NCBI GenBank assembly: GCA_039934475.1
Contig: JBDTMC010000001.1
Span: 1 to 58,736 of the forward strand
Length of the DNA: 58,736 nt
Direction of reading: 5' to 3'
From: Bryobacteraceae bacterium
GTDB taxonomy: Bacteria > Acidobacteriota > Terriglobia > Bryobacterales > Bryobacteraceae
Position 1 is the stretch's first letter. Each line of letters begins with the position of its first letter. Below the pieces are notes generated by a model that worked only from the letters and a program-made list of their open reading frames with translations, had not been told where the DNA came from and ran no database searches. The position numbers and the translations under genes are program-made. Positions 531-55,299 of this stretch are shown here, piece by piece.

Positions 531-638
531 GGCGCACAGCGGTCCTGCTCCGGGGGAAGCGTAGCAGGAGGGCGGGACGAATCCGTTCGGTGGGTTTAGC
601 TATGTGATTGATGGGATGGGAGATAGAGGCGTGGAAAA
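531..638. repeat. direct repeat R1, copy a (108 bp)
   Basis: Hand alignment to 4201-4308 gives 106/108 identical positions. Contains hairpin CCTGCT(544-549)...AGCAGG(563-568). Weaker similarity continues about 30 bp further on both sides. Confidence 0.9.
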
Positions 639-1037
639 GTCGTCACTGACGATTTGGCTGCGGCTGGGGGTAAGTTTTTGGCGTTGCCGGATGGAGTGGA
701 CTCGGCGTTTTTGCGTGATCAGGCGAAGGCGTTCAGATTGGGGCCAGTTAAAGGAAGTTTCGGGCGTCGGGATGAAAGCGCACAATGCCTCTCGATTCGC
801 CGCCGCAGTTAGCTATCGATATTCATGGATAATGGGCCCGTCGCGATGGACTGCGTCGACCATTGAGTGTCCGCCTCGGCGGGTTGTGCCCCGACTACTC
901 CAACGCAGATATCGCCAGCCGGGTCAAACACAGAGTTTCAGGGGTGGCGGCCATCCGGGCGGCGCGGTAGAGCGGCAAGCGCCACAGTTCTGTTCGGAGC
1001 CCGGCCGACTCGCTCTATTCCCCGGTGATGTCCTCCT

Positions 1038-2073
1038 TTAGGGTTGGCCGTCGCTCGGCGCGAGCGTAAGGATGAAGCCGTGGTCCTTGTGGTGAGAGTC
1101 GGTATAAGACCCGATGATCACGTCATGGTCGTTGATTCCGTGGACAGATGTTCGCTCGGAATCGGGTGGAATAATGAACGTCCAAGAGCCTGCTGAGAAC
1201 TGGAGAACTCCCTGTATAGGGAACGGCGACTTGTTGCCCAGTGTGGTTCCCACCATGACGTTTCGGTTGTTGAACGCGGATGGAAGGAAATTGCCTGGGC
1301 CCGTGTACGTGGTTAAACTGCCTCCCAAGCTCAGAAGAAATCCCTCATTCCCAAGTCCATCCTCGCCGAGGACTGAGCCGGACTCATTAATCGCGACCAG
1401 AGCGCTAATGCTTAGACCTGGCGGAGCAAACGTTAATGAGACCAGTGGACTGCGTCCATAAGAAGCTATGTTCGTTGTCTGCCGAGTCCCAGTAGTAACC
1501 CACCACAACATTCCTGTTATTGATACCTTGGGGCCGGATATACGGTGAGCCTGGCACGTCGATAGTTGCGAATCGGCCGTCGGGGAACCGAACGAAGCCG
1601 TGAGGACCGGGAGTTTCATAGTAGCCGGTGACAGTGCCCAGGTCATTCATTTGCAAGGGAACTGTGTTCAGGGCACCCGGCGCATCGAAGGTGGTGATTG
1701 CCCCATCAGGGGTTCTCAGGAAGCCGTGAACTGTATTAGCGGCGATATACCTACCGACGACTGTACCCGCCTCGTTAATGAGGGCCGCATCGGTGGAGTC
1801 GGCTCCGGGAACGTCGAACGTAGTGAAGGTTCCGCTTGGGTCCCGAACGAGTCCGTGGTTCACGCACGAACCTGAAATGACGCCTTTGTTGTTGATGCTC
1901 TCCGGGCTAAGGGATCCACAGCCCGGTGTGTCCAGAATTTGGTATGTACCCTTCAGTGGAAGAGGAGGTAAGGTTTGAGAATGGAGCGCTCCAGGAACCA
2001 GGCAGGCTGCGAAGAGCGCCGGGCAGAACAGAGTAGATGAGCGTAGGCAAGTCATTGATGTTGTCTCCTTCAT
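1038..2073 (-). pseudogene. secreted repeat protein (repeated INNxGxVVG...HGF[LI] units, HAF-repeat-like) with one frame break
   Basis: ORFs 1405..2073 and 1038..1646 carry the same repeat unit in two frames. The N-terminus MKETTSMTCLRSSTLFCPALFAACLVPGALHS looks like a signal peptide. The frames can be joined near the A3 run at 1428-1430 to give ...HSFLWTQSTGLINV/APPGLSISALVAINESGSVLG. Confidence 0.6.
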
Positions 2074-2438
2074 CGAGGAATTCGTGTCGCGAAACGGCGG
2101 ACCGTTTCAAATTTCGGGATCGCGTCGAGCATGTTCCTTCGCAGCAACAAGCGGATCAAAGATGATAACGTCATCGCTACTACACGGTCGTCGAAAGCCG
2201 GCGCCTGAAATCTGGTGGAGTCACGCAGCGCCAAGTGCTCTATCTCGGAGAAATCAGTGATAGCCAGACATGGACCTGGCGCAAGACGATGGAAGTGTTT
2301 GATGAACACCGGCGCCGTTCATCTGCCATCGTCCAACTTTAACGCAAGCCTTTGCGGGCCATGCCGCGGCACCCGTCCGCAGTGCCGCTCGAAAGCATAA
2401 GAGTCACTACGGCGTATTCGCCGTTGCCAGCGCTTCGG

Positions 2439-4064
2439 TCACTTCTCGGCCGCGTAGCTGTGCGCCCAGACCAATTCAGGCCTAGAAGTGTCGGCGTCTT
2501 TGGCAATTTCCAGAAGTTGAAGCGCGTAGGCGCGGGCTTCGGCTGCCTGCCCCGACTTGTCGGCTGCCCTGGCAGCGCCCGCAGTGGCGTTGAAGCGGCG
2601 CGGCGCAATCTTCAAAACCGCCTGATACTCCGTCGCGGCTTCAACCGCCGCGCCGCTTTCCAGCAGCAGATCGGCCAGTATCTCGCGTACGGGCAGCAAC
2701 GCCCCCGGCGTCACGGGGTGTTTGTCCACTGCATCCTCATGGTCGGCAGCTGCGCGTAGCAGTTGCAGACCCTCGGCCTTCTTGCCTTCGGCGAATGTGA
2801 TTAGCGCCACTGCGGCTTCCAACTGCGCGCCTATAGAACCGGCCCAATCGTAATCGCGGGTTGCCGGCAAGGCCTCACGGATCGCGCTGATTTGCTCAGC
2901 CGAACGGCGCGCCGACGCCGCGTCACCAGCGCGTGCCGCCCCGACTGCTCTGGCATAATGCACCAGGGCTTCGACGTTTCGGAAACGGTGCCACGGGAAC
3001 CATACCGGCTGAATCTCCAGGGCGGCGGCAGCTTTCCAGTCGTGCCGCTCCAGGGCCCAACGCGCTGGAACGGCCGCAAACGCGTAGGCGGCGGCGAACT
3101 GCTTCTCGTCGAGTCTGTTGATGGCCATTAGCTCCGTCACGAGCCTTTGAGCGCTCTTGTCCTTCGCCTGCTGCAGATAGGCGTAGACCAGGTAATCCAT
3201 AGCGTGGAGCTGATCGAATGCGCCACCGCCTCCGTGCAGCCTCTGCGCCTGCGCGATGGCCGATCGCACCGCGGCCGTGTTCGATGTGATCGAGTCGTCC
3301 CACAGGCCCAGCCGGGTGAAGATGTGAGACGGCATATGCAGTGCGTGCGACGAATCCGGCGCGATCTTCGCGTAGGCGCGCGCTGCCTGGAGGCCGATTT
3401 CCGCCGTGGACGGGTAGTCTACGCTGTGAATGATGTAGTGGGCCACGCCAGGGTGATTCCGGTGTCGTGGCAGCAGTTGATTGAGAATCCCAGAGCCCTC
3501 CTTCTGCCACTTGTACGTCTTGTCGGTCGGGTCGAGGTAGCCGATCGCGACCAATTGCAGCGCGTGAAAGATAGCGGCCTCATCGTCGTCGGGGTAGCGT
3601 TCGCTGACCTTGGCCAGCGCCCGTTCGTAGGCCTTCGCGCGGGTCGCGTGATCCACCGTCTCCCAATCCTGATAGAACACGGCCAGGGAATTGATATAAC
3701 CGCGTTCGCGCTCGGTTTTCGCGCCGGCCTTCAGGGCCAAATCCAGGGCTGCAGTGCCTTGCTTCAGTTCGTCCCGTGCCGGAGGCGCCCAGATCGGGTG
3801 ATACCAGGTTCGGGCGACGCCCCAGTGGGCCATGCCGCAGGTCGGGTCCGCCTTGGCCGCATTGATGAACGTGAGGCGCGCTTCCTCGTACCCGAAGGAA
3901 TGCAGCATAGCTGCTGCACGGGAAATCAACGTCTGCGCCGGGGTGTTGCATGAGGTCGAAAGACTAACGGCGCCGAGACCTGCAACGGCGTTTTGATGTT
4001 TGGAGTGATCGTCCTGGCCGGCTACCGCGAGTACTGCGCCAAGAATTACTAGTACGAGGCGCAT
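2439..4064 (-). CDS. secreted TPR-like/helical repeat protein of unknown function
   Basis: 555-aa ORF. The likely start is the internal ATG at 4062-4064 (MRLVLVILGAVLAVAG, signal-like). The body is a long Ala/Leu-rich helical repeat region. Confidence 0.7.
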   Translation of the reverse strand: MRLVLVILGAVLAVAGQDDHSKHQNAVAGLGAVSLSTSCNTPAQTLISRAAAMLHSFGYEEARLTFINAAKADPTCGMAHWGVARTWYHPIWAPPARDELKQGTAALDLALKAGAKTERERGYINSLAVFYQDWETVDHATRAKAYERALAKVSERYPDDDEAAIFHALQLVAIGYLDPTDKTYKWQKEGSGILNQLLPRHRNHPGVAHYIIHSVDYPSTAEIGLQAARAYAKIAPDSSHALHMPSHIFTRLGLWDDSITSNTAAVRSAIAQAQRLHGGGGAFDQLHAMDYLVYAYLQQAKDKSAQRLVTELMAINRLDEKQFAAAYAFAAVPARWALERHDWKAAAALEIQPVWFPWHRFRNVEALVHYARAVGAARAGDAASARRSAEQISAIREALPATRDYDWAGSIGAQLEAAVALITFAEGKKAEGLQLLRAAADHEDAVDKHPVTPGALLPVREILADLLLESGAAVEAATEYQAVLKIAPRRFNATAGAARAADKSGQAAEARAYALQLLEIAKDADTSRPELVWAHSYAAEK

Positions 4065-4200
4065 GAGATGCTCCGATCCGGGGCAATCCGTCCGAATTGG
4101 TCTCACACCACCCCTTCCAACCGAGGGAATCCGGCGAGTACATCCTCAGGGCATTGTAGCTCACCGGCCGAAGTGTCTGGGCTCAACTGCCCGCATGCCT

Positions 4201-4308
4201 GGCGCACAGCGGCCCTGCTCCGGGGGAAGCGTAGCAGGGGGGCGGGACGAATCCGTTCGGTGGGTTTAGCTATGTGATTGATGGGATGGGAGATAGAGGC
4301 GTGGAAAA
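4201..4308. repeat. direct repeat R1, copy b
   Basis: Near-identical to 531-638, with an offset of exactly 3670 bp. Confidence 0.9.
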
Positions 4309-4867
4309 TCTGTGACCTAAGATTGGCGCCGGTGGATGATGGAGAAGGCGAATACGTGTTCGACGAGCGAACTGGGCACGTACGAACGTCACCTCCTCAG
4401 AGCCCAACACCGTCTGCGCCTTTCGGGACCAGCTTCTGGGAGAACACCTTGGTCGGGGATAGGTCTTGCATGGAATCGCGAAGCTTTGCAGCCAGGGCGA
4501 TTTCAAACCGGCGATGGCGCCGGGCTCCACTACTACACCGTGATTGTGGATGGCGCGGAAGTAAGCGATCCCGGCAGCACGGCGTACTTCGGTGGCAGCA
4601 AATGGGCGAGCGCGGTTCAAGTGCCGGAAGCGGGTGAGACGTATTTATCTGCCGCAGAATGTCTCCCAGGGACAGGTCCGGGAGGTATAGTATGACTCAA
4701 AGGTCACCGGCACCTGGCGGCACGCGTTGGTATACACGCCGCCGGGCTACGACGCACGGCTGAAAGAGCGCTACGAATGGCAGACATGGCGACGTAATTT
4801 GCAGGACTTTGCTCCGCGGCTGTTCCAACCGGCGGGGCAGGCGTCGGCGTCCGCGCGGTTGAGGTAA
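4278..4867 (+). pseudogene. carbohydrate-esterase-like (putative esterase family) gene remnant
   Basis: Esterase-like segments lie in different frames: ...GLHYYTVIVDGAEVSDPGSTAYFGGSKWASAVQVPEAG..., then ...NVSQGQVREV*YDSKVTGTWRHALVYTPPGYDARLKERY, joined directly to the C-terminal tail EWQTWRRNLQDFAPRLFQ. There is an in-frame TAG at 4688-4690, and the whole catalytic core between RY and EW is missing. Confidence 0.75.
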
Positions 4868-4940
4868 AGCGGGGGGCGCAGCGGGCTGAGGCTTTGCGCG
4901 GTTGAGGTGCGATCGCTGCGAGAGTGGAACAGGGTAGACG
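4760..4940. repeat. direct repeat R2, copy a (esterase 3' end and downstream)
   Basis: Aligns with 5239-5410 at roughly 85% identity with several indels (hand alignment). Confidence 0.8.
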
Positions 4941-5117
4941 CCTCCCGGAGGCGGCCGTGCTGACATCGCTCATTGGGCGGACTGTTCTGGTGAAATACAG
5001 CCGTGCACCGCTTGTGCTGTTAATGATCTATTGGGCGGGCATCCTTTAAGTCCCGAAATCTATCGAAAACACGCCTTTAACTCCCAAAAAGTGATAATCG
5101 AGCCACAGCAGGGCAGG

Positions 5118-5972
5118 CTAATGCCCGATTTCTCTGCCAGGAGATTTTCGTGTCGCCCCGTGGGATCGCGGGGGCGCTGTCGCGCAAGACCAAACTGGGC
5201 CGACTGAGACAGATCGGATCCAGGCTCTAACACGCAGTTTGAAAGAGAGCAAAACGTGGCGCTGTAATTTGCAGGACTTTGCGCCGCGACTGTTCCAGCC
5301 AGTAGGGCAGGCGTCGGCGTCCGCGCGGTTGAAGTAGAGCGGGGGCGTAGCGGGCTTAGGCAGTTGAGTGGTTGGGGGGAATCGCTGCAGAAGTGGGAAC
5401 AGGGTCAACGGTTGCATGTGCACTCGAAGCACCGCAACGGTCTGGAGCAGACCTTGCCTGGCGAGCGTTTCCAGGTATTCTACCAATGTCTTGGGAGGGT
5501 TCTTAAGGCTCTCGCGATGATTCTGGGCCGCTTCCACAACAGCATGGGGCGCAAGGTGGAGGAGGTGAAGGACGAATTCGTCGGGATGTTGGGCTTTAAT
5601 GCCGAACGATCCAACGGTGTCAGCAGGAAAGTCTCGCAGGTTCATCGTTACGATGACGTCCGCACGACCCATAATGGCGGCAGCCACGACATGCCTGTCG
5701 TTGGGATCGGGAAGATGTAAACCGGGGATAAGATGCTGGTAGCCGGTGACAAGTGTATTGATGGCATGCGTGTCCATCAAGACCCGCGTACGTTCCAGTT
5801 TGTCGCGGGTGACGTCGGACCGGTGTTGTAGCAGACTGGAAATCCATTCTTCATGAACGTCCGCCGACCATTTCGCGCGAAAGAGCCCAGTGAGGGCTAG
5901 ATGCATCAGGAGGTTCCGAAGTTCCGCAGGATAGAGGACGTTGGCGTCATAGAAGGCGGTGAACCCAGCCAC
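5118..5972 (-). CDS. PIN-domain toxin (VapC-like); ORF extended about 97 codons into antisense repeat R2b
   Basis: GTG start at 5970-5972. The N-terminus FYDANVLYPAELRNLLMHLA...DPNDRHVVAAAIMGRADVIVTMNLRDF is typical of PIN proteins that pair with HTH antitoxins. Recognisable homology ends near aa 187 (about 5410). The rest reads through R2b and looks non-native. Confidence 0.7.
   Translation of the reverse strand: MAGFTAFYDANVLYPAELRNLLMHLALTGLFRAKWSADVHEEWISSLLQHRSDVTRDKLERTRVLMDTHAINTLVTGYQHLIPGLHLPDPNDRHVVAAAIMGRADVIVTMNLRDFPADTVGSFGIKAQHPDEFVLHLLHLAPHAVVEAAQNHRESLKNPPKTLVEYLETLARQGLLQTVAVLRVHMQPLTLFPLLQRFPPTTQLPKPATPPLYFNRADADACPTGWNSRGAKSCKLQRHVLLSFKLRVRAWIRSVSVGPVWSCATAPPRSHGATRKSPGREIGH
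5239..5410. repeat. direct repeat R2, copy b
   Basis: Second, more degraded copy of the esterase tail (..TGTAATTTGCAGGACTTTGCGCCGCGACTGTTCCAGCC..GGCAGGCGTCGGCGTCCGCGCGGTTGAAGTAGAGC..). Confidence 0.8.
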
Positions 5973-5976
5973 GGGT

Positions 5977-6427
5977 TCAAATTCCTAATTCCTGGTCGTA
6001 GGCTGCTAGTTCTGTGAGCGCCGCGCGGCGGGCCGCATCCGCACGGCGCTTGTAGGCAATCAATGCTTCCAATCGAACGCGCCGATGGGTACCGACCCGC
6101 CGGAATTCGATTTTGCCCCTCGTCGAGAAGTTGAATGAGAGAAGGCCGCGAGATATTCAGCATGTCGGCCGCTTCCTGCGTGGTGAGTTCCGCATGAACG
6201 GGGATAACGGTGACCGCATTCCCTCGCCCCATCTCTTCGAGAATGCGAATCAGCATTCGTACCGCAGAGGCGGGAATCTTTACGGTCCCCTTTGCCGGGT
6301 CGTCGAGGAGACGAAGCCGGAGCGGCTCTGCTGTCTGCAGGCGCGAGGTGAGAACCCTGCTCGAGTGTTTGGCAAGGGCCGCTTCGGCCTCAGACGGAAG
6401 CTTTGGTGTTGGTGTTCCCTGTGCCAT
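5977..6427 (-). pseudogene. helix-turn-helix (excisionase/MerR-like HTH) antitoxin, frameshifted
   Basis: ATG at 6427 preceded by AAGGAG. The HTH segment is [24 protein letters not shown]. After the C4 run at 6116-6119 the native continuation [45 protein letters not shown] lies in another frame. Its stop at 5977-5979 is 5 nt upstream of the toxin start. Confidence 0.7.
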
Positions 6428-6468
6428 GTTGCGCTCCTTTGTTCCAGCTAATTCAGATTAGCATATAC

Positions 6469-7442: not shown

Positions 7443-7548
7443 ATAGCGCTGTTTAGGCGCTGACGTGCCGGAACAAGAACTGACACCATGCGCGCCAATC
7501 CGCGCTTTGTTGATGGCCTTAGGTCAGCCCATCAGTGATGTTTTGTCG

Positions 7549-8379
7549 TCATTCGCTCGCCGGCGCTTCCCAGTCATCGACAGGAGGGTGCGCCATCGTC
7601 ATCTCATGCATGATTCGGAATCGCTGCGCCTCGACAATTCGCAGGAGCGTGCTCGCGGAGACGATCACCTCGGCCGCTTCCTCAGCCGTACTGCCGACAT
7701 GACGGTGCCCTGTCGAGTTGCGAAACACGCCAATGGCACCCGCGAACAGATGCGCCATGGATTCCTGCTCCGCCACAGGCCGACGCGTCTCTGTGAGTGG
7801 TCCCGGCGAAATCGGTTGTCCCCTCTTATCGCCCGCAGGCCTGAAAGCGACTCGCATTAGATCAGGACCGTAGTACGGCTCATCCTGCAAGGAGCCCGCT
7901 TCACGAACGGCCATTTCCACCTGCCGGAAGGCTTCAAAGATCGCTGTGTCGTATTTGCCGCTCAGAAAGATCGGGTAAACCTCGTTCCCGATGAGCGGGT
8001 GAAGCTGATGCTTTGGCAACAGACTTCCCTTCCGGTAGGAGGCGTATTTATCTCGTGTCTTGATCGCCTTGCCGCGACGCGTGATGAAATAGAGCTGGGA
8101 GCTGTCAAGCTCCCGCGCCAGCAATCCGTCACTTTGCAGCCAACTCCACGCTTCCAACAGCGCTCTTTGAAGCTCCGTTTGATTGGCCCCGGGGTACGAC
8201 GGATTCTTCCAGAGCCAATTGAAAAACTCCGACTGGCTCACTCTCCCGTGTTGCGCGATCGCACTACTGCCAGCATCCGCCCAGGCGTTCAGATAGACAA
8301 GCAGCACGCCGGCTAGGTCCTCCACCGGAAGCGAAAAGAAATCGACGGTGTTTGGAATCAGCTGCGTGAGCGGGTACAT
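7549..8379 (-). CDS. TIGR02391 (hypoth_ymh)-family protein with HEPN-type RNxxxH motif
   Basis: The C-terminal half ...YDTAIFEAFRQVEMAVREAG...LMRVAF...GPL...ESMAHLFAGAIGVFRNSTGHR...EEAAEVIVSASTLLRIV matches my recollection of the TIGR02391 pattern. The R-N-S-T-G-H motif is at 7705-7722. Confidence 0.7.
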   Translation of the reverse strand: MYPLTQLIPNTVDFFSLPVEDLAGVLLVYLNAWADAGSSAIAQHGRVSQSEFFNWLWKNPSYPGANQTELQRALLEAWSWLQSDGLLARELDSSQLYFITRRGKAIKTRDKYASYRKGSLLPKHQLHPLIGNEVYPIFLSGKYDTAIFEAFRQVEMAVREAGSLQDEPYYGPDLMRVAFRPAGDKRGQPISPGPLTETRRPVAEQESMAHLFAGAIGVFRNSTGHRHVGSTAEEAAEVIVSASTLLRIVEAQRFRIMHEMTMAHPPVDDWEAPASE

Positions 8380-8545
8380 AGCTAATCATGCCGTTTTCGT
8401 CTATTCGGCGGCAAGTGATGCGATCTCAGTCGCCCTTTCAATACCCCGCCGTTGGTCGCTAGATCGAGGCGTCAGGATCAACGGCGCACTACTTTGCGGG
8501 TCGCGCCTTGATTGTTGATCATTCGAAAGTTGGGCGGATTAGTCC

Positions 8546-8590
8546 CCGCAAGTCGGAATGGGACAGTTCAACTTCCGGGTAGTGCGTCAC
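8546..8590 (+). repeat. R4 hairpin-type repeat, copy a
   Basis: CCGCAAGTCGGAATGGGACAGTTCAACTTCCGGGTAGTGCGTCAC matches 9822-9866 at 37/45 positions. Confidence 0.75.
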
Positions 8591-8781
8591 TCGCTCGGAG
8601 CGCGGGGAGCGGTTGCATTCCGGCCGAACTTGGGCCGCTCAGCCTGCGCGAAGTTGATCTTGGCGGTAAGCCCTGATTCGCCTGCGCGCTCAATCAGACT
8701 GAAAGGGGGGCGCGCTCGGCGGCGTGCGTGCGACGCTGTATGACAATGACGATTCCGTGATGCGGCTGCACCTGAACACCG

Positions 8782-9761
8782 ATGCCGGGGATTTGGGAAA
8801 CTGATCTTCAACCAGTTATGAATTCCCCGAAACAGGATGCCACGTCGGAACAAGGCGTCGCGTGGGTAAAACATGCCGTGTCGCGTCACACTGGCTGGAT
8901 TTTCCGTGAGCAGACTAACATGGACAAAGGCGTCGACGCCCAAGTGGAAGAAGTCGCAGACGGGCGAGCAACCGGTCGATTGATCGGGCTACAGATTAAG
9001 TCCGGCCAGTCCTGGTTCAAAGGCAAAACCAGAGGCGGCTATACCTATAACGGCGATGCCAAACACCTCACGTACTGGCACACAGCCTCCCGATTCTAAT
9101 CGTCCTCTACGATCCGATATCAACCCAAGCCTACTGGCAGTGGGTAGCGGAGCAGCATATCAAAATCAATCCCAAGGGTTGGGCCATCAGTGTGCCACCC
9201 ACGCAGATGATCAACGCGAGTACCGCAGCAGCATGGCATCAGATTTGCTTACCCGAGTCCGACAAGCGTTTCATTCGTCGCAAGAGCCACTTCGAAGAGA
9301 TCGCCAACGCATTCTCGCGCTACCCAGAACGCCGACAGACCCTGATCTATGAGGCACTCAGCCACAGTCGTCACAGCATTTACCTCTCGACACCCTACGT
9401 CAGTGCAGACATCATCGCCGTTCTCGATTACGTTGCCGTCAAAACCCCAGTTCGACTCGTGATTGGTGACATTCAACCCGAGGAGGTCTGGAAGCTTCTC
9501 CGCTCGCGAACAAGGCCGGGCTTCGAAGTCCGCGTCGCCCTGCACCTGCATTTAAAACTGTCCATTTTCGACAGCCTCTTTCTCATCAGCGGTTCCGGGA
9601 ATCTCACGGCTATGAGCCTAGAACGTCAGACGGAACAGTTTTCTACGCTCGTTGACGAAGACGAGACGCAACAGCACCTGGAACACTTCTTTGACGTTTG
9701 GAACGACAGCATCGACGTCAATAACCTTCCAGCGTCTACCGGTGCCCGTGCATCAGCCTAA
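8782..9761 (+). pseudogene. DUF4365 (PD-(D/E)xK-like) - phospholipase D-family nuclease fusion, one frameshift
   Basis: ORF 8782..9099 reads ...NMDKGVDAQVEEV..TGRLIGLQIKSG...HLTYW, which is DUF4365-like. The expected continuation PILIVLYDPISTQAYWQWV... is in the frame of ORF 9192..9761. The break is at the C3 run 9089-9091. The C-terminal domain carries the HxKxxxxD motif HLKLSIFD (9549-9572) followed by GSGNLT. Confidence 0.7.
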
Positions 9762-9821
9762 GGCTTGCATACCAAGAGCCTCCAGAGTTGTCGGCAGACA
9801 GGAAGTTGACCGGATCCGTAC

Positions 9822-9866
9822 CCGGAAGTCGGCATTGGACAGTTCAACTTCCGAGTGGCGCGTTAT
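9822..9866 (+). repeat. R4 hairpin-type repeat, copy b
   Basis: CCGGAAGTCGGCATTGGACAGTTCAACTTCCGAGTGGCGCGTTAT. It has an internal 7-bp stem CGGAAGT/ACTTCCG. A degenerate inverted GGAAGTTGAC lies at 9801-9810. Confidence 0.75.
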
Positions 9867-10176
9867 CCGGACGGGGCAGTCAGGTCCATCATCACAGATG
9901 CGGACTTCGGAGTGCCGAGTCGCGCTTCGCAGCTACTGGCTCGCGCGTGTTTCGTCAGCTTGATGGCGACCGGCCTAATTCATGGAGGGCGCCTCGAACA
10001 GGTGTAAGGCAGATGGAGATTGCGACATTGTGGTGGAGCACGGCCGACCGGCCGCGGACATGGGGCTTGAGTGTGTGCTCCCTGGGTTCCTGACTTGCAA
10101 GGAACCCCAGGCGGCTGTGCAACAAGCTTGCCTTTGCGACGGAGGATGCCGGAACGGCGATGCGACAAGTTCTTTC

Positions 10177-10213
10177 CCTGACAACTCGCATCATTTTGAC
10201 GCGAGTTGTCAGG
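10177..10213 (-). terminator. 13-bp perfect stem-loop 15 nt downstream of the LTD gene stop
   Basis: CCTGACAACTCGC (10177-10189), 11-nt loop, GCGAGTTGTCAGG (10201-10213). No U-tract follows on either strand, so terminator function is uncertain. Confidence 0.4.
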
Positions 10214-10227
10214 CGGGGGCTAGGCCA

Positions 10228-10719
10228 TCAGCGCAGGGTATAGGCGGCTTTCGTCGTGGGAACCAGCTTGCCGCCGCTGCGGACCAGCACTTCACCCTCC
10301 GGCGGATTGGGATCGTAGCTTGCGGAATCGAGTGTCGCCTGGGTGACGGGGTTGTAGAGAGCCGGCGTGTCGCCTTCCTTGTTGTTCCAGACGTAATCCT
10401 TGTCCGTGAACAAGTGAAAGTCCGCCCCCCGAAGGTCTTCATCCCGGATCACGCTTTCGGGACCGCTGCCCGAGTGAACACGCACCGTTTTCCCCGGTTG
10501 CAGGGTCCCCTTGAACGACATGACCTTGTCCCAGGTGGGCGCTTGCCCGTGGTGATACGCCCGGTGCCACAGCTCAAGCTGAGCGCAGTCAAACTGGGCT
10601 GTTCCGTCGTTTATAAAATCGACCCATTCTGCCGCCAGTTGGGAAGCAGGGGTTTGTCCGTAGCGATTCCGGTCTTTACCCGCCGGATTGGGCTTGATGC
10701 CAGTGATCTGTAAAGCCAT
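10228..10719 (-). CDS. lamin-tail-domain (LTD) protein, 163 aa, no signal peptide
   Basis: MALQITGIKPNPAGKD...EWVDFINDG...LELWH...LQPGKTVRVHSGSG...YVWNNKEGDTPALYNP fits the LTD pattern (I..NPxGxD...EwVel.N.g...L.gw.l...l.pG..v.v.sg.g...iwNn.gD...L). Confidence 0.65.
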   Translation of the reverse strand: MALQITGIKPNPAGKDRNRYGQTPASQLAAEWVDFINDGTAQFDCAQLELWHRAYHHGQAPTWDKVMSFKGTLQPGKTVRVHSGSGPESVIRDEDLRGADFHLFTDKDYVWNNKEGDTPALYNPVTQATLDSASYDPNPPEGEVLVRSGGKLVPTTKAAYTLR

Positions 10720-10927
10720 AATTGAAAGACATCCTTAAAGCAATGTGAGGGCGTTGCCGCCGTCAAAGGTTCTTCGGGAACCTTCACTCTCCTTACGAAT
10801 AAGGGCCGGCGGTTTTCCCCCTGAGCCCGGGAATTATTTTTCCGGGGGGAAGACCGGGCCTGCTGGTTCGTATAGTCAGTGAAGGGACGCGGCAGTGACA
10901 AAATAGGCTATTGGTAAAGTCCGGGGC

Positions 10928-11509
10928 ATGGTGAATCGCTTCCAGAACGTCGATTTTGTGAGGGCCTACAAGGTCCTGTCACTCAGGGCGATGGGGATCG
11001 TCCGTCATTACGGCGGCCCGGACACTTTTGATGGCGGTTTCGACTACGAAGACGTTCTCGGAGAGGTCTTCCACGAGTTTTTCAACTCCCCGGACGGTCT
11101 GGGCTGGAAAGAGAGCAAGGGCAGCATCGAGGCCTTTCTGGGCAAGATCCTACACAACAAGATCGTCGATCATTTGCGGCGACAGAAACACCTTGGCGGC
11201 CCTCTCGATGACGACAGCCGGACCGTCGCGCCCCCGGCTTCTAAGAACAGCCCTCAGGGCGTAGCCCCGGCACGCGCGAAGACCGATTTCACGGCCAAGC
11301 TCTATACGCTGGTGGGCGATGACAGCCCGCTGAAGGATTTAATCGTGGCAGCCGAAATGATATCCGGCAGCCATAACGTCAATCAGGAATTGGGAGAAAT
11401 CTTGGACAAAACGCCCCATCAGGTATCCAAGCTGAAGGATCGCCTGCTGAAGAAAGAAGGGGTACGGGAACTTTATGCCTCGCGACAAGCAGCCAGAACA
11501 AGAGCCTGA
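10928..11509 (+). CDS. divergent sigma-70 family (ECF-like) sigma factor
   Basis: Region-2-like segment DYEDVLGEVFHEFF...SIEAFLGKILHNKIVDHLRRQKH. Region-4-like HTH NQELGEILDKTPHQVSKLKDRLLKK. The start codon is uncertain. Confidence 0.6.
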   Translation: MVNRFQNVDFVRAYKVLSLRAMGIVRHYGGPDTFDGGFDYEDVLGEVFHEFFNSPDGLGWKESKGSIEAFLGKILHNKIVDHLRRQKHLGGPLDDDSRTVAPPASKNSPQGVAPARAKTDFTAKLYTLVGDDSPLKDLIVAAEMISGSHNVNQELGEILDKTPHQVSKLKDRLLKKEGVRELYASRQAARTRA

Positions 11510-11909
11510 CATCCTGGACAAGCTGTTCGGAGACGCGGCGGAGCTTGCCGACGACGAACTGGACATGCTCTTTGCCGCCCTTGCGCCCGGCGCTGATCCG
11601 GCGGCCGATATTCACGCCATCGCCGAAGCGGCGGCGGTGAAGTACCGTATTCAAAACAAGATGCCGCCGGATCACGTCCAGGCCGCGATTGATGCCACCC
11701 GCGAAATCAAGACTCTCGACAATGTCGCGCCGTCAAAGCTGCGCCAGATCGTGGACGCCATCAAGTCACCCTTTACAGGGGCCGTCTCCGATCCCGCTTA
11801 TGCCTATCGGAACCGCGACGGCGAGTTGGACAACGACGACCAGGCCATCGTGGATGACCTGACGGACGAACTTCAGAAGGATTGGGATGACGAGGAAAAG
11901 GAGCCATGA
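11475..11909 (+). CDS. highly acidic small protein (144 aa), unknown function
   Basis: ORF overlaps the sigma gene stop by 35 nt and the protease gene start by 4 nt (ATGA). It is Asp/Glu-rich throughout (..ELADDELDML.., ..DGELDNDDQAIVDDLTDELQKDWDDEEKEP). An alternative start at 11565 would remove the 5' overlap. Confidence 0.55.
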   Translation: MPRDKQPEQEPDILDKLFGDAAELADDELDMLFAALAPGADPAADIHAIAEAAAVKYRIQNKMPPDHVQAAIDATREIKTLDNVAPSKLRQIVDAIKSPFTGAVSDPAYAYRNRDGELDNDDQAIVDDLTDELQKDWDDEEKEP

Positions 11910-12763
11910 GCCCGGCCGCCCAGCTTGCCTGCCTCGTGACTCAGCGTTTCGTAAAAAGCTCGCCGCCCGATCTCGCGTCCCTCTGCAAAGAGCTTGGCTT
12001 GCGCATTCAGGAAGTTCCTGCCAAGGGGTTTGACGGCGCTCTGGTGCGCAGCAAATCCGGGCAAAAGGGCATCATTGCGGTCAAGGCGAGCGTCCGGGAG
12101 GCGTCGCGCAAGCGGTTCACCGTCGCGCATGAAATCGGGCATTTCGTCATTCCGCACCACCGCCTGCTGAAGAACGTCTGCGATGAGAAGACAATCGACA
12201 GTTTTGATTCGCGGCTGAACCGGCCCGAGATCGAGGCCAACGAGTTTGCCGCGGAGCTTTTGCTGCCAAGCGCCCTTCTTGCAAAGCGATTCAACCTGAA
12301 AGAACTCTCGATCCCAGAAATCTCCGCGGTCGCCACGGAATTCGAAACGAGCCTGACGGCGACGGTTCGCTCTTTCCTTCGGCTGACGGCCCTGCCGTGC
12401 GCTATGGTCTGGAGTTCGGATAATCAGGCGCGGTGGTGCGCCCGCAGCGATACGTTCCGCTTCTTCCTGCCGCTTGCCGAGTTGCCGGCGGAAGGTTCCT
12501 TTGCCACCGGACTTTTCAAGGGCCGGATGGTCCCTTCGGATTTCGCGGCGGTTCCCGCCGAGGCGTGGCTAGAGCGGCAAGCCGCCGAAAGCGTGGAGAC
12601 GTTGCTGGAGCATTCCATTTACCTGCCGAACTACAATTCCGTGCTTACACTGCTATGGCTTTCTGAATTGGACACAGAGAGCTTCTCTCGGGAAGAAGAC
12701 GGCCTCTTGAACGAGCTTGACTCCCGAGAGTTTACGCTAGCTCGTCGAAGATGGCCCGGCTGA
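11906..12763 (+). CDS. ImmA/IrrE-family (COG2856-like) zinc metallopeptidase with about 130-aa C-terminal extension
   Basis: HEIGH at 12128-12142 (FTVAHEIGHFVIPHH), followed by EANEFAAELLLP. This is the canonical ImmA/IrrE arrangement. The C-terminal half belongs to no family I recognise. Confidence 0.8.
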   Translation: MSPAAQLACLVTQRFVKSSPPDLASLCKELGLRIQEVPAKGFDGALVRSKSGQKGIIAVKASVREASRKRFTVAHEIGHFVIPHHRLLKNVCDEKTIDSFDSRLNRPEIEANEFAAELLLPSALLAKRFNLKELSIPEISAVATEFETSLTATVRSFLRLTALPCAMVWSSDNQARWCARSDTFRFFLPLAELPAEGSFATGLFKGRMVPSDFAAVPAEAWLERQAAESVETLLEHSIYLPNYNSVLTLLWLSELDTESFSREEDGLLNELDSREFTLARRRWPG

Positions 12764-12870
12764 TCTCGCGCTACTAGAGCCCGTAAGATCTGAATTAATT
12801 GTAGATATGGGCGACTCGGACCTCTATTCACACCTTGCCCAGAACCGGCGTTCTGGGAAGCGTCCGGTCA

Positions 12871-12906
12871 GCTGCGAGCGAATCGTCGGCAAACCGGAAG
12901 TTGAAC
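12871..12906 (-). repeat. R4-related sequence, inverted orientation (copy c, partial)
   Basis: The reverse complement contains the exact 13-mer GTTCAACTTCCGG shared with 8566-8578 and matches about 27/36 positions of the R4a right half. The hairpin arm is not conserved. Confidence 0.45.
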
Positions 12907-16401: not shown

Positions 16402-16457
16402 TGGTAAAGGGGCCTTGTTACAGCATAACGTGAGGCTTGAAAATGGCACCGGTTAAA

Positions 16458-16560
16458 CGCCTTGCGCCGGAAAAATTGGGGCAGGCACGAGTTTCCTCCC
16501 TTGAAAACTCCTGTATTTTCAGCCTACTAGGGTCGGAAAGTCATGCCAGCCCCATTTTTC
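16458..16560. repeat. direct repeat R3, copy a
   Basis: GCCTTGCGCCGGAAAAATTGGGGCAGGCACGAGTTTCCTCCCTTG...GGGTCGGAAAGTCATGCCAGCCCCATTTTTC aligns to 18142-18247 at roughly 80-85% identity. Confidence 0.85.
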
Positions 16561-16637
16561 GAGGACGATGATGATAGAGTGAATTCGACGGTAGTGGTGG
16601 AAAAGCGTTTGTTTTCGACGAATGTGAGCGATTTTCG

Positions 16638-18137: not shown

Positions 18138-18141
18138 ACAA

Positions 18142-18247
18142 TGCCTTGCGCCGGAAAAATTAGGACAGGTACGAATTCCCTCCCTTGGGAACTCCCGTAG
18201 TTACAGTAGCTTACGGGGGTCGGGAAATCATACCAGTCCCATTTTTC
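18142..18247. repeat. direct repeat R3, copy b
   Basis: See copy a. It lies between the Fic stop (18137) and the aldolase stop (18264). Confidence 0.85.
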
Positions 18248-18263
18248 CATACGGACCGGCGGC

Positions 18264-21617: not shown

Positions 21618-21730
21618 AATTCCAGGATAGAGGCAAAGGCGAATGCCCCGTGTGAAGATTTGTAGGGCTACAGAGCTACCCGAAACGGAGGGACAACTAC
21701 TCGCGAGAGTTTTAATCGGGGGCGTACGCT

Positions 21731-22858: not shown

Positions 22859-22958
22859 CCTTTCCCCAGAGAGCTACGTGAAGAGCGAATGGTGGGGTAG
22901 AGGAGATTTGAACACCATCCGCGATTGTACCGCAATCGAGAAGTGACCCAACCAAAAA

Positions 22959-46440: not shown

Positions 46441-46458
46441 GTGTATACTAACGCAGAA
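46441..46458. repeat. 18-nt motif GTGTATACTAACGCAGAA (copy a), directly upstream of the tannase start
   Basis: 17/18 identical to 47831-47848. Contains the GTATAC palindrome and a TATACT/TAGTAT -10-like hexamer on each strand. Confidence 0.7.
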
Positions 46459-47830: not shown

Positions 47831-47848
47831 GTGTATACTAGCGCAGAA
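47831..47848. repeat. 18-nt motif GTGTATACTAGCGCAGAA (copy b), in the NRAMP / PSCyt divergent region
   Basis: See copy a. The TATACT hexamer ends 28 nt upstream of the 47868 ATG. Confidence 0.7.
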
Positions 47849-47867
47849 ACGGAGGGGACCACCTGGG

Positions 47868-52088: not shown

Positions 52089-52095
52089 AACACCA

Positions 52096-53430
52096 CTAGA
52101 CGACCTCGATGAGGTCGGGCTTGATAATCGCCCGCGCGGGATCCAATTCCGCCGCGGGTACGAGAAGCTCCATCTTGACAAGTGGCCCGAAGTCGAAGAA
52201 GAGCGAGCGGTAATGGAACGTCCGAATCAGCGAGTCGAAGCCCTGTTTGGCGAGCAGACCGTGCAGGTAGGCAGCGCAGTAGACGTTGTCCATTTCCAGC
52301 AGACAGGCCACGTGATCGCGATGGCGGTGCCGAAAACGCCACTCGGCGACGATGTCGAATCCGAAAGCGACTGCCATTGCCAATCCAGGAAAGCCAAAGA
52401 CGGCAAGTCGAAGATCCAGGTATCTATCGGCCACCGGAAAGCCGGCACCGAATACGGCAAGCAGGGCCGTCGTTAGTATCAGAGATTGGAGGGGAATAAC
52501 GCCCCCTGCCGGCGGTAACACGCCGTGAGGCAAATTCCGGCTTAAGCGACCTCGGCCGCTGAACAGACTGCATGCGCCAAAGCTGAGAGCGACGATTAAG
52601 ACGGCTATCAAAAATAGGTCGATGGGTGATTGCGTTAACCATACAAGAGACGCTAAAACCGACTTTAGCGGCGATAGGAAAGTAATTATGGCGTAGGCCC
52701 AAAGGACGGGGAGAATCCCTTGCGGGAATGCGGGTAGAGTCAACACGGGGATCGATTCCTGCCCGGCGTCGATAAGCGCCGCCTGCTGGCGAAGGGAGAA
52801 CCTCCACACAAGCAATGCGATGGCGGCCAACCAAATTAGGTCCCCCACAACACTCCCAAAGGAGAGGCCAGTCGCCGGGACAGATTTGTAGGCCAGTCCA
52901 AATGCTCGCCACACGGCGTCGTGCAGGAGGATCACGCAGAATCCGTTACCCAGGCCCCAGCGGGAGATGAGCCGGCCAAGGAGGTACGTCAACGCCGTGC
53001 CGGCGCTCAGAGTCGCTATGGTGGACAGGACAAACAGAGGTCCAGGATGGGTTACAAAAACTACACCACCTGGCGGGCTGGCATTTTGCAGGGCTATCGC
53101 GATTGTAAATGCCTGGAATAGAGCGAACCCGAATCCGAATCGAATCGCGAGCGCATTTAGCTTCGCTCGCCCGGCACTCCCGCCTCGACGAAGCTTTCGG
53201 GTGATTGGAAATACGAACGACGATAACTCAATGAAGACGAAGCTGCCAACAAGGGGCGTAACTCCGAGGGCCATGACGCCGAAGCGGAACGCCCCATTCC
53301 AATGTTCCAGGCCGATGCTGTTCACGGCAAGGACAGGAAGCAGAGCGGCAAGCTCCAAAACGGCGAGCAGCGCCAGCGTGACAACGATCCTCATCCACTT
53401 ACTGCCTGCAAACACGGAAGTTCCAACCAT
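52096..53430 (-). CDS. divergent SecY-family paralogue with extra C-terminal soluble (DUF2007-like) domain
   Basis: Hand alignment to E. coli SecY: [51 protein letters not shown] vs [68 protein letters not shown] vs [40 protein letters not shown] vs HLPLKVNMAGVIPAIFAS. About 70 additional C-terminal residues (..[17 protein letters not shown]...[17 protein letters not shown]) follow. Confidence 0.6.
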   Translation of the reverse strand: [444 protein letters not shown]

Positions 53431-53647
53431 GGTTACCTCACAGGGGGCACGCGGTGCCGTGCCCGGCCATTCTCTCCCGTGGAAGCAGCATTCTTGGGAT
53501 TAGCCGAGATCCTCATCTTGGATTCGACGTTGGAGGAAAGCGTACAACAACCATGCCGCTTCTGGCAATAGGGTGAAAATAGACTAAGTAAATTTTCGTG
53601 CCCCGAACGATTGACGCCGCGCCCAGAGTGGAATAACCTACCGGGAT

Positions 53648-54793
53648 ATGTCCAGTCCACTATCACGACGCGACTTCGTTGGTCGCGGAGCCGCCGCGGC
53701 CGCCGCCCTTGCCGGAACAGGCTCCCTTTTTGGCCTGCCGCCGCTTGCTGACGGCGAAACCCTCGTGCCCTTCCTCACTCCGCAAGGGATCAGTGCGGAG
53801 CGGCCCATGGTGCAGTGGGACCAGCTAACGTCATGGATCACGCCTACCAAGGAGTTCTTCTTCGTGGGCCACTATGGCTATCCCGAAACGAAGGCCGAGG
53901 GCTGGACGCTGGACGTCGGCGGCTTCGTACATAAGCCCCGCACTTTCACTCTCGACGAATTGAAGAAGCGCCCCCGGCGCGAGTACACAGCGACGCTGGA
54001 ATGTTCCGGAAACGGCGTCTCGGCGGGCTTTCTTGGCGGCATCGGCAATGCGAAATGGGGAGGCACACTGCTGGCCCCGCTGCTGAAGGAATGTGGCGTC
54101 AAACCCGAAGGCATTGAGGTCGTGTTCTTCGGCAAAGACTCGGGTACGGAGAAGCTCCGCGGCGCCGAGTATGTCCAAAACTTCGGCCGCAGCCTGTCAC
54201 TCGCCGACGCGATGAAGGACAACATCTTACTTGCTTGGGAGATGAACGGAGAAACACTCGACAATAAACACGGGGGCCCGCTCCGCCTGATCGTCCCCGG
54301 CTGGTACGGAGTCGCCTGGACGAAGTGGATGGACCGCATCGAGGTTCACGACCGCCGTTTTGAGAGCCGCTTCATGGGCCGCGACTACGTCACCATCCGC
54401 GGCGAGAAACGTGGTGACCAGACCATCTGGCGCGAACTCTCCGTCGGCAAGATGAATCTTAAATCGATCGTTGCCCGGGTCACCAAACGCCAGGATGGAA
54501 CTCTCACCGTCACCGGAGCCGCCTGGAACGACGGCACTCCGCTCAAGTCGGTAGAACTGAAGATCGACGACGGCCCCTGGGTCGCCACCCGACTCGGCGA
54601 AGGGATGAAGGCCGACCACTGCTGGAAGTTCTTCACTTACGAATGGAAGAACGCCGCCCCCGGCGAACACACGCTTGTATCCAGGGCCACCGACGCCAAG
54701 GGCGCACAACCCGCCGCCGACGACCAACTCATCGCCATGAAAAAGACTTACTGGGAAGCGAACCAGCAATACGCCCGTAAGATCAAGTTGTAG
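53648..54793 (+). CDS. sulfite-oxidase-family molybdopterin oxidoreductase (Tat signal)
   Basis: MSSPLSRRDFVGRGAAAAAALAG; ..ATLECSGNG..; ..GGPLRLIVPGWYGVAWTKW..; C-terminal Mo-co dimerisation-like domain. Confidence 0.88.
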   Translation: MSSPLSRRDFVGRGAAAAAALAGTGSLFGLPPLADGETLVPFLTPQGISAERPMVQWDQLTSWITPTKEFFFVGHYGYPETKAEGWTLDVGGFVHKPRTFTLDELKKRPRREYTATLECSGNGVSAGFLGGIGNAKWGGTLLAPLLKECGVKPEGIEVVFFGKDSGTEKLRGAEYVQNFGRSLSLADAMKDNILLAWEMNGETLDNKHGGPLRLIVPGWYGVAWTKWMDRIEVHDRRFESRFMGRDYVTIRGEKRGDQTIWRELSVGKMNLKSIVARVTKRQDGTLTVTGAAWNDGTPLKSVELKIDDGPWVATRLGEGMKADHCWKFFTYEWKNAAPGEHTLVSRATDAKGAQPAADDQLIAMKKTYWEANQQYARKIKL

Positions 54794-54868
54794 TGTGTCC
54801 CACCGCCACCCGCGACAACCAGTGACACTGTAATCCAGTCAGTTTACGGTTAAATTGTGACCTTGAGG
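54771..54868. repeat. direct repeat R6, copy a (last 7 codons + stop of the oxidoreductase gene and downstream)
   Basis: ACGCCCGTAAGATCAAGTTGTAGTGTGTCCCACCGCC matches 55198-55234 at 35/37 positions. A second block ACTGTAA.TCC...GTGAC.TTGAGG is also shared. Confidence 0.85.
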
Positions 54869-54876
54869 ATTACCCT

Positions 54877-55151
54877 ATGGAGGACATCCTTCCCGAGGTT
54901 GGCCTATCCGTCACATCTACCGCGAAGGCTCTTGGTGTCTCGCGCCAGATGGTTCATGACATCCTGGCCGGGCGCAAGGCGCTGTCCGCCGTCATGTGCC
55001 TAAAGGTATCCCGCTTGTTTGGTAGTACACCGGAATTCTGGATGCGTCTCCAGGCAGATTACGACCTTAAAAAGGCGGCGCAAATAAGAAAGTTATGGAG
55101 CGCGTCGCGCGGATCGTACCGGTCAAATCACCCGCCGAACTCCGCCCCTGA
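54877..55151 (+). pseudogene. higA: HigA-family (XRE HTH) antitoxin remnant, frameshifted, no HigB partner
   Basis: ..GLSVTSTAKALGVSRQMVHDILAGRKALSAVMCLKVSRLFGSTPEFWMRLQADYDL.. The native tail NKKVMERVARIVPVKSPAELRP* is in another frame after the A3 run at 55082-55084. Only 83 nt separate it from the upstream gene, leaving no room for a toxin. Confidence 0.7.
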
Positions 55152-55197
55152 TAGAACTGCGGCTCCCGATCACTTTCTCTTCCACCTCCCCACGCGC

Positions 55198-55299
55198 ACG
55201 CCCGTAAGATCAAGCTGTAGTGTGTCCCGCCGCAGGCTTCGCCGGGTTCTTTCGACACGCTCGCCACGCAGCGCCAAACTGTAAGTCCGTGACTTGAGG
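55198..55299. repeat. direct repeat R6, copy b
   Basis: Contains a non-functional duplicate of the ARKIKL* codons of the oxidoreductase gene. Confidence 0.85.

Follow-up and report, generated by a model that had tools for sequence, protein, structure and literature searches.

Insertion with long target duplication was originally described by Nobusato et al. (2000, Gene 259:99; via PMC2853133) and was later documented in 23 examples, with direct repeats of 24-423 bp and 86-100% identity, which frequently extend across a start or stop codon, in some cases bracket partial genes and are not accompanied by mobility genes (Furuta et al., 2010; PMC2853133). In later work the pattern was noted for 'other DNAs' as well, and tandem duplication followed by recombination was offered as an alternative route (PMC3457768). 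A second class is formed by cis-mobilizable elements (CIMEs), i.e. decayed integrative elements that have kept attL and attR and lost the integrase; their tandem accretion has been reviewed (PMC5704250). Here, a stretch of 58,736 bp (the window) is described, the complete contig JBDTMC010000001.1 of a Bryobacteraceae metagenome-assembled genome (MAG), in which five pairs of local direct repeats, named R1, R2, R3, R4 and R6, bracket accessory DNA. With moderate confidence we favour the interpretation that the left 18 kb and the oxidoreductase/SBBP site of this contig are flexible DNA derived from small mobile modules, and that the repeats are junction scars of at least two origins.

With long target duplication the window shares small defence-type units, direct repeats and the absence of mobility genes. 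It differs in that Acidobacteriota were not among the phyla of Furuta et al. and in that the cargo is not of the restriction-modification (RM) type (Fic/PDC-S24, a higA remnant, TPR/HAF genes); only a gene for a restriction endonuclease (REase)-like domain fused to a PLD nuclease is restriction-like. With CIMEs and accretion it shares integrase-less accessory DNA bounded by direct repeats and module arrays separated by one site, and att sites, like some of the repeats described below, often include the 3' end of a gene. In contrast to that class, the contig has no integrase, conjugation genes or tRNA, its modules are single genes of 1-3 kb and not decayed ICEs (integrative and conjugative elements), and five different repeat sequences would need several specificities. 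Judged by these likenesses, the window appears to hold members of at least the long target duplication and the att-site accretion classes. New relative to the known classes are the occurrence in Acidobacteriota, the non-RM cargo and the presence of several cases within 59 kb.

Direct repeats and cargo of the window

Alignment of the window to itself by BLAST yielded exactly five local direct repeat pairs that bracket accessory DNA. They measure 36-155 nt at 80-98% identity, with the copies 0.4-3.7 kb apart: R1 (531-638 and 4201-4308; 108 nt, 98.1%, E=2e-47), R2 (4784-4935 and 5254-5405; 154 nt, 83%, 4 gaps, E=2e-35, or 196 nt at 77% in a looser alignment), R3 (16456-16560 and 18140-18247; 108 nt, 80.6%, E=7e-21), R4 (8527-8587 and 9803-9863; 61 nt, 82%, E=2e-9) and R6 (54771-54806 and 55198-55233; 36 nt, 94.4%, E=2e-8). 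All five exceed 30 bp. An earlier reading of the same DNA (the original prediction) had claimed at least five repeat-bracketed inserts, and each of its pairs was recovered; for R4 the pair stood and the length changed from 45 bp at 82% identity to 61 nt. The remaining matches of the window to itself were paralogous ABC-ATPase domains (37702/38668 and 38067/39044) and one palindrome (10177-10213). Inverted or distant repeat pairs were not found in the 58.7 kb, and none of the five repeats had a further copy there or in other loci amounting to about 1 Mb. The edges of the repeats are sharp, as extensions into the flanks matched no better than shuffles do; those of R1, R3 and R4 were discarded on this ground, and so was a 'second block' formerly ascribed to R6 (P=0.09).

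The lengths and imperfections of the repeats (36-155 nt), the lack of a transposase and the absence of inverted repeats at the ends of the inserts set the pairs apart from transposon target-site duplications, whose size they had already been said to exceed. Dispersed repeats like repetitive extragenic palindromes (REP) or miniature inverted-repeat transposable elements (MITE) are found in many copies and in both orientations across a genome; within the 58.7 kb each of the repeats has two copies. Neither an integrase nor a transposase was detected in the window with Pfam, NCBIfam and PHROGs on the open reading frames (ORFs) of the islands and Pfam on the other large ORFs, which bears out the prediction that no recombinase is nearby. 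The tRNA and Rfam scans of the window were likewise negative, and conjugation genes are absent from the whole contig; the sole mobility-related match was an excisionase-type helix-turn-helix (HTH) antitoxin. According to the profile scans the cargo is mostly of the defence or toxin-antitoxin type, and the region also holds Ymh, a sigma-like/CapH/CapP trio and the HTH antitoxin. Segmental tandem duplication was considered as well; further diverged duplicates were sought at the protein level and none was found.

Several accessory genes have the look of pseudogenes, with one or two frameshifts (the HAF-repeat gene at 1038-2073, the HTH antitoxin at 5906-6427, the REase-PLD gene at 8782-9761 and higA at 54877-55152). 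The core genes are intact, which argues against a general indel error rate of the assembly. As the window is a MAG contig, strain variants might have been concatenated during assembly. This is hardly credible: the copies are not identical, unique sequence with genes lies between them, and a mis-join would in any case need the repeat at both ends of the insert. Moreover, the flanks and the module edges are confirmed by independent assemblies (L087-L099, introduced below), and the same architecture is found in many other assemblies.

Junctions at R6 and R4

Copy A of R6 (54771-54806, plus strand) consists of the last 7 codons and the stop of a molybdopterin oxidoreductase gene followed by 13 nt, in agreement with the original prediction. 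Copy B (55198-55233, plus strand) continues on its right side as the sequence that lies downstream of the site in the relative L087. Between them (54807-55197, plus strand; GC content 0.56) there are 70 nt of unassigned sequence and a higA-type HTH remnant (54877-55152), which, by reading of the sequence, is 5'-truncated and carries one frameshift. For comparison two close relatives of the oxidoreductase gene, L087 and L088, were taken from 90%-identity protein clusters. The oxidoreductase tail is single-copy in both (about 90% and 86% nucleotide identity, respectively), and right after ...TAGTGTG it is followed by an unrelated gene of 298 aa on the opposite strand. In L087 a second TAGTGTG follows that gene, and after it comes the same DNA that the window has to the right of R6 copy B; the divergence of L087 amounts to about 10% in the oxidoreductase gene and to about 17% in the downstream stretch including the SBBP gene. 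The window lacks the 298-aa gene, which has no similarity to the higA insert, and the 36-mer of R6 joins the sequences lying on either side of that gene in L087. The L087 junction shares only TAGTGTG with R6.

Because L088 is the outgroup, the 298-aa gene is probably ancestral and probably was lost in the lineage of the window, plausibly via a deletion between the 7-nt repeats. Thereafter, the higA fragment would have been acquired together with a 36-nt duplication across the deletion junction. As the 36-mer spans a junction that exists only after the loss of the 298-aa gene, the comparison indicates that R6 is a true host-target duplication that arose in this lineage. Both states that distinguish the lineage from L087 are common to copies A and B, and two further changes are private to B; as there are 36 sites in all, this is too little to choose between duplication in situ and a closely related donor. 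In the cases of Furuta et al. the repeat is single-copy at the site of the related genome, and R6 fits every testable point of that class.

R4 presents a different picture. Copy A (8527-8587) is a junction site with inverted 9-mers (rAAGTTGG ... CAACTTCCG). Copy B (9801-9863) contains at CAAC|TTCCG (9848/9849) the left boundary of a 3.06-kb module (9849-12903, plus strand), and a partial third site, R4C (12884-12906; GTCGGCAAACCGGAAGTTG|AAC), is found at the right end of this module and matches 9790-9812 at 20 of 23 positions. The cargo between the two R4 copies is the frameshifted REase-PLD gene (8588-9802, plus strand), with a DUF4365-type N-domain (Aga_REase model, E=2e-15) and a PLD nuclease domain (PLDc_2, E=6.5e-12). 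To its left lies a single-gene module encoding Ymh (Hypoth_Ymh/TIGR02391; 7488-8552, minus strand). The 3.06-kb module encodes an LTD protein (10228-10719, minus strand), a sigma-70-like protein, a CapH-like protein and a CapP/IrrE protease. The palindrome mentioned above is strong, with a stem of 13 bp (CCTGACAACTCGC ... GCGAGTTGTCAGG); it is situated inside this module, where it overlaps the LTD ORF, as called on the minus strand, at its 5' end.

Clustering of proteins at 90% identity places Ymh in a group of 19 members. Seven soil-metagenome contigs (L092-L098) share only 1.07 kb with the window (7488-8552, 87% identity), and besides this stretch no neighbouring gene is common to them and the window. 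The end of the shared stretch falls within R4A, and upstream of Ymh every one of the seven contigs carries one R4-type site and no more, in a genomic context other than that of the window. Close relatives were obtained for the sigma-like, CapH and CapP proteins as well. The 3.06-kb module was recovered from the plasmid- or ICE-like contig L099 (with DNA ligase, TraM-like, ParA, DUF3363 and IS1595 genes), in which a stretch of 2,960 bp is 97.6% identical to window positions 9849-12804 and, beyond an IS1595-family insertion, another 110 nt match up to position 12903 (L099 8915-13003). The left edge of the module lies inside R4B; its right end, GGAAGTTG (...GTCGGCAAACCGGAAGTTG), is followed by another site, which is complete in L099 and partial in the window (12884-12906). 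The IS1595-family insertion of L099 measures about 1 kb and is located inside the module, and about 10 nt of window sequence are matched on both sides of it.

Aligned R4 sites extend over about 85 nt and have conserved arms, AAACNGGAAGTTG, then 22-40 nt, then CAACTTCCGANNGGCGCGTNATCCG. Their inner 9-mers are inverted (GGAAGTTGR / YCAACTTCC) and 22-40 nt apart, and the ninth stem position covaries, being A/T in R4B and G/C in L092. Coding potential of R4 was discounted, as a hand count of the mismatches revealed no codon periodicity. R4 recurs as a boundary site in independent genomes (L092-L098 and L099). This indicates that R4 is a junction site common to mobile modules, with the exchange taking place inside the site, and not a host target. 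The original prediction had taken the repeats to be host target sequence. That holds for R6, with its single tail in L087 and L088 and its lineage-specific junction, and does not hold for R4, whose site is shared with unrelated contigs. The prediction had named membership of a repeat family unrelated to the local flanks as contradicting it, and R4 is of that kind, as it stands beside Ymh in seven contigs and at the ends of the L099 module; for the same reason it does not pass the filter of Furuta et al. that the repeat be 'not a repeated family'. The further argument, by which a repeat made of host target could not at once be a mobile element's end, sets up a false dichotomy, since integrative elements carry a copy of their target. 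The more general suggestion that the repeats mark junctions of acquired DNA is supported.

R4 would behave as a recombination-site-like element, with modules joined inside it at CAAC|TTCCG and successive modules separated by copies of the site; a recombinase encoded elsewhere would catalyse the joining. Such an arrangement resembles att-site accretion or a cassette array. The series R4A/R4B/R4C looks like the arrays known from CIMEs, as do two arrays around Fic genes in other genomes (L054 and L066, see below). CIMEs are the subject of Pavlovic (2004) and Bellanger (2011), as reviewed in PMC5704250. With integron cassettes and clusters of attC sites lacking integron-integrases (CALINs) the window has in common that single promoter-poor genes lie between imperfectly palindromic sites of 60-140 nt, that the sites have covarying stems and variable centres with a crossover inside the site giving hybrid junctions, and that the cargo is rich in toxin-antitoxin and defence genes. 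In contrast to attC (5'-RYYYAAC ... GTTRRRY-3'), whose boxes close a hairpin that is imperfect and has extrahelical bases, R4 reads GTTRRRY-like ... RYYYAAC-like on both strands, i.e. reversed; besides, its fold is ordinary by comparison with shuffled sequence, the orientations are mixed, IntI is missing and R3 does not have the AAC/GTT boxes.

The sole recombinase candidate is a fragment in L092 that matched Pfam PF00589 below the cut-off (E=0.0025). In L092-L098 an ORF that overlaps the end of Ymh (e.g. L092 5815-6369) weakly matches the C-terminal catalytic region of tyrosine recombinases, and the one in L092 may be an integrase remnant. Viral contigs were also inspected for the R4 site and were set aside: a loose pattern retrieved chance hairpins, and a tighter one retrieved a single phage family with the match inside an ORF. 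A wider proposal can be formulated, to which we attach little confidence. According to it, the R4-type site defines a cassette-like system that shuttles defence modules of 1-3 kb between chromosomes and plasmid- or ICE-like elements, and solitary defence genes more broadly, Fic/PDC-S24 among them, are spread across phyla by a recombinase-poor, target-duplicating route. The cargo of the proposed R4 system may comprise Ymh, the REase-PLD nuclease and LTD-sigma-CapH-CapP, and its hosts may be soil bacteria.

Gene tails, hairpins and the routes to R1, R2 and R3

R2 is associated with the remains of a CE1-type (feruloyl) esterase gene. The pseudogene (4336-4783, plus strand) consists of fragments corresponding to residues 88-129 and 147-172 of PDB entry 7b5v_A, followed directly by the C-terminal tail, and has lost about 195 internal codons (phmmer against PDB, E=2.5e-17; Pfam on the three-frame translations gave no match, the fragments being too short). 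Copy A (4784-4940, plus strand) holds the esterase C-terminal tail, with the stop at 4865-4867, and about 75 nt downstream; copy B (5254-5410, plus strand) holds a second esterase tail and its own 75 nt or so, and its right edge abuts the 3' end of a PIN gene. The repeat thus includes the last ~24 codons of the esterase. Between the two coding tails there are 10 differences, 7 of which are at third codon positions (P=0.02), and the changed codons are synonymous in 6 cases and non-synonymous in 3 (P=0.016). As the differences are mostly at third positions and synonymous, the tails appear to have diverged as parts of working genes and not by neutral decay of a fresh duplicate.

The PIN_3 toxin gene (5118-5972, minus strand; PIN domain at aa 8-112) is missing its stop codon, and the reading frame continues through the antisense of R2B. 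By reading of the sequence, its PIN-family part presumably ends at about aa 190. Its partner, the ORF of the excisionase-type HTH antitoxin (5906-6427), looks frameshifted. The chimeric PIN tail and the 5'-truncated higA, which had been presented as later truncations of the cargo, are both confirmed; however, they do not tell the mechanisms apart.

The elements e14 and phage 21 integrate into the 3' end of icd of Escherichia coli and provide a substitute gene end. R2, R6 and a pfkB case described below (L030) likewise flank their insert with an imperfect duplication of a gene tail with mainly silent differences. Those elements, however, encode an integrase and measure tens of kb, whereas the inserts here are 0.3-3.6 kb and integrase-less.

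The original prediction explained all inserts by one mechanism, namely that each is a circularised fragment carrying a homologous stretch from a diverged relative, integrated by a single RecA-driven Campbell crossover, the divergence of the copies being the distance between donor and recipient. The topology of all pairs fits this model, as does the predominance of synonymous differences in the R2 tails; moreover, compensatory changes between the copies of R3 (see below) are to be expected if the copies evolved under selection in separate lineages. The longest perfect runs are 69 nt in R1, which is adequate for RecA, 28 nt in R2 and only 17-19 nt in R3, R4 and R6. The latter is below the usual minimum for efficient RecA exchange. 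Integration by this route is possible for R1 and R2 and, because of the short runs, unlikely for R3, R4 and R6. R4, furthermore, is common to unrelated contigs and is not local sequence; both R6 copies share the states of their lineage against L087, so that no foreign origin is visible; and other inserts of the contig have no repeats. A donor lineage could not be identified for any copy, and the donor must already have had the cargo beside the same target, which moves the problem one step back. As a general explanation we regard the Campbell model as quite unlikely, and the pairs do not speak for one new insertion mechanism; their origins differ.

R3 flanks an intact Fic-domain gene (16638-18137, plus strand), which over its full length matches PDC-S24, a candidate single-gene defence system of PADLOC (E=1e-187). 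Copy A (16456-16566) forms a hairpin, imperfect and about 105 nt long, at a distance of 55 nt upstream of a tricorn protease gene (start at 16401), with a folding energy of -46 kcal/mol (z=-3.8). Copy B (18140-18256) is a hairpin that extends from 2 nt past the Fic stop to 7 nt before the stop codon of an aldolase gene (18264), with z=-3.4 on the plus and -5.1 on the minus strand. Both hairpins, about 100 nt long, exceed shuffled sequences in stability and differ by two compensatory changes. An A5/T5 pair forms their outer stem, a feature also of bidirectional terminators, and they have a bulged T and no AAC/GTT boxes. Three relatives of 87% identity (L089-L091) align to the window up to the aldolase stop codon (18263-18264) and not one base beyond, each having a different neighbour there.

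R3 as the ancestral aldolase terminator was ruled out, as the sequence after the aldolase stop is unrelated in these relatives. A mobile hairpin family was also considered for R3 and dismissed. A gapped-pattern match in L086 shares only the outer stem that the pattern demanded, generic and A-tract/T-tract terminator-like, and a covariance model of R3 detected no other copy in about 1 Mb of loci. L086 itself, an unrelated metagenome contig, bears two near-perfect hairpins of about 100 nt (44-141 and 591-692; -77 kcal/mol, z=-7.8) in opposite orientation and 450 nt apart, which look REP/MITE-like or like a strong bidirectional-terminator family. The closest relatives of the tricorn protease (80% aa identity) show no synteny, only the ORF being alignable. 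Within the tricorn gene (minus strand) a 12-nt tandem repeat at 14689-14742 (CTCTTTGTCCTT, 3.8 copies) encodes a low-complexity insert, KDKDKDKEKDKEKDKE.

R1 is intergenic. Copy A (526-638) lies 30 nt upstream of the start of the minus-strand gene at 2-496, and copy B (4196-4308) about 90-130 nt upstream of a gene for a TPR protein. The segment between them (639-4195, minus strand) holds one or more frameshifted HAF-repeat genes (1038-2073), an ORF of 79 aa and the TPR gene (2439-4064/4106). Its GC content (0.599) equals the mean of the window; its proteins, that with TPR included, have no relative at 90% identity or above, and a 26-mer of R1 had no match in the genome or metagenome contig collections. 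The N-terminus of the product of gene 2-496 (…SRANGTKSKGPKTQEGKDISKMNAFKHGYYG…) presumably resembles a widespread small-protein family, characterised by the motif '…EGK…NAxKHG…', whose genes are multi-copy and possibly element-associated. A sixth case, R5, had been put forward as weak, and so it is. The 18-nt GTGTATACTAACGCAGAA upstream of a tannase gene (46441-46458) recurs at 17 of 18 positions in the 5' end or leader of an NRAMP gene (47831-47848), upstream of two co-oriented genes. A match of this quality has a chance of about 0.25% per gene-bracketing comparison.

The position of the R1 copies upstream of two co-oriented genes, as with R5, and the terminator-like A5 and T5 tracts of the R3 hairpins are in keeping with a reading in which some pairs are paralogous regulatory or structural sequences that flank a gene by chance, perhaps with gene conversion and without any insertion. 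In other genomes Fic often has short hairpin repeats on either side (L007, L081, L058 and L013), and local direct repeats are common (117 direct against 13 inverted pairs in 884 kb of Fic loci). Nevertheless, we consider this reading very unlikely: neither the window nor the ~1 Mb of other loci contains further copies of the repeats, neither a sigma-70-type promoter nor a simple terminator was called in R1 or R3, R2 and R6 contain coding gene tails, and R3-like sequence is absent downstream of the aldolase in the 87%-identity relatives.

For R1, R6 and perhaps other pairs, repair of a break or template switching could have captured a fragment and filled in the overhangs, giving a perfect duplication of variable length that decayed later. 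The sharp edges and variable lengths (36-155 nt), the fragmentary cargo (the 5'-truncated higA, the stop-less PIN gene and the esterase pieces) and the absence of mobility genes agree with this, and the divergence of R1 (2%) and R6 (6%) fits an origin after the split from L087. Double-strand breakage was also suggested by Furuta et al. (PMC2853133). However, neutral decay would leave neither the excess of synonymous changes seen in R2 nor changes that preserve the structure, as in R3, and R4 is accounted for by the shared site. We consider this explanation unlikely.

The interpretation that we favour, small mobile modules with junction scars of at least two origins, would have the modules assembled piecemeal: Fic (PDC-S24), REase-PLD, Ymh, LTD-sigma-CapH-CapP, the PIN/HTH pair and the higA remnant. 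The repeat-cargo-repeat topology would result if the chromosome and a circular molecule bearing the site underwent one reciprocal exchange. R1 probably shares the origin of R6, and R2 and R3 would fit a single crossover with incoming DNA that carries a target-like stretch. The repeats, the modules with their boundaries, and the presence of the R6 target and of the R4 site in single copy in the comparators are observations; a circular intermediate, an enzyme and a succession of events are what we infer.

A number of observations weigh against this interpretation. The R6 site is occupied by different DNA in L087 and L088 and is not empty, by which it also departs from long target duplication. 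The 7-nt repeat of L087 can be explained equally well by microhomology-mediated deletion, for which reason TAGTGTG was downgraded as a recombination core. Empty-site comparators were not found for R1, R2 or R3. The fold of R4 is no more stable than that of shuffles (z=-0.9), its boxes are in inverted order (GTTGRRC ... GTTCAAC) with respect to attC, which makes it no canonical attC, and no recombinase was found in the contig or adjoining the R4 sites. The repeat copy counts cover this contig only, and dispersed copies elsewhere in the genome are possible. Finally, two other lineage-specific indels of the contig are not associated with a long repeat.

The first of these indels is a PAS histidine-kinase gene (21669-22958), which begins right after the AnmK stop and is absent from L089 (88% identity; L089 3881/3882); no long repeat flanks it, only TAG being shared. 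The second (52093-53610, 1.5 kb) comprises an ORF of 444 aa with a partial SecY match and is absent from L087 (858-879), again with no long repeat at its junctions. As L088 has at least the right-hand ~280 nt of this segment, it is probably a deletion in L087 and not an insertion here. The breakpoints 18263/18264, 22959, 54793 and 18137 all fall a few bases 3' of stop codons (those of the aldolase, AnmK, oxidoreductase and Fic genes), a pattern that could stem from selection against disrupting genes or from a genuine preference for such targets.

Repeat bracketing elsewhere and its meaning

At least 508 species-representative genomes contain relatives of the Fic protein, at 69-79% aa identity. 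The 80 best-matching loci (L005-L084), from Acidobacteriota, Alphaproteobacteria, Gemmataceae, Opitutia, Myxococcales, Rokubacteria and others, were surveyed. In these 80 loci no partner gene travels with Fic, the conservation being limited to the ORF. Direct repeats bracket Fic within 4 kb in 7 of the 80 loci, compared with 2.7% of random intervals of the same length (P=0.006), and the sequence of the bracketing repeat differs in every genome. In L030 Fic is flanked by a duplicated 131-nt piece of the 3' region of a pfkB kinase gene. In L054 a three-copy array (4972/7162/8186) stands beside a tyrosine integrase, in L066 a three-copy array (4505/5637/8127) lies in a defence-gene cluster, and in L046 Fic resides in a tRNA-Arg island. 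Tyrosine integrases adjoin the repeat-bracketed Fic in L054 and L058, with unrelated repeats. Three-copy arrays and a 426-bp tandem duplication were noted among L007 (4347-5299; 4586/5121/10003), L066 and L054; in L066 the arrays stand between another Fic-domain gene, small ORFs and an N-terminal fragment of HsdM. The density of local repeat pairs in the 884 kb of Fic loci is the same as in the window, and about 25 of the 117 direct pairs bracket a whole ORF without coding paralogy.

How single defence or toxin-antitoxin genes move without an adjoining transposase or integrase is still poorly explained. Long target duplication has been catalogued since 2000, and no mechanism has been reported in the literature cited here. 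The comparison of R6 with R4 indicates that look-alike repeat-gene-repeat structures hide different processes. The site family of R4 offers the best lead, as it provides a conserved, searchable junction site, found where modules end that unrelated contigs share at 87-98% identity. If no recombinase is tied to the R4 site, the window would be an ordinary, well-documented mosaic flexible region. If a recombinase is tied to it, a defence-gene cassette system outside integrons would become testable.

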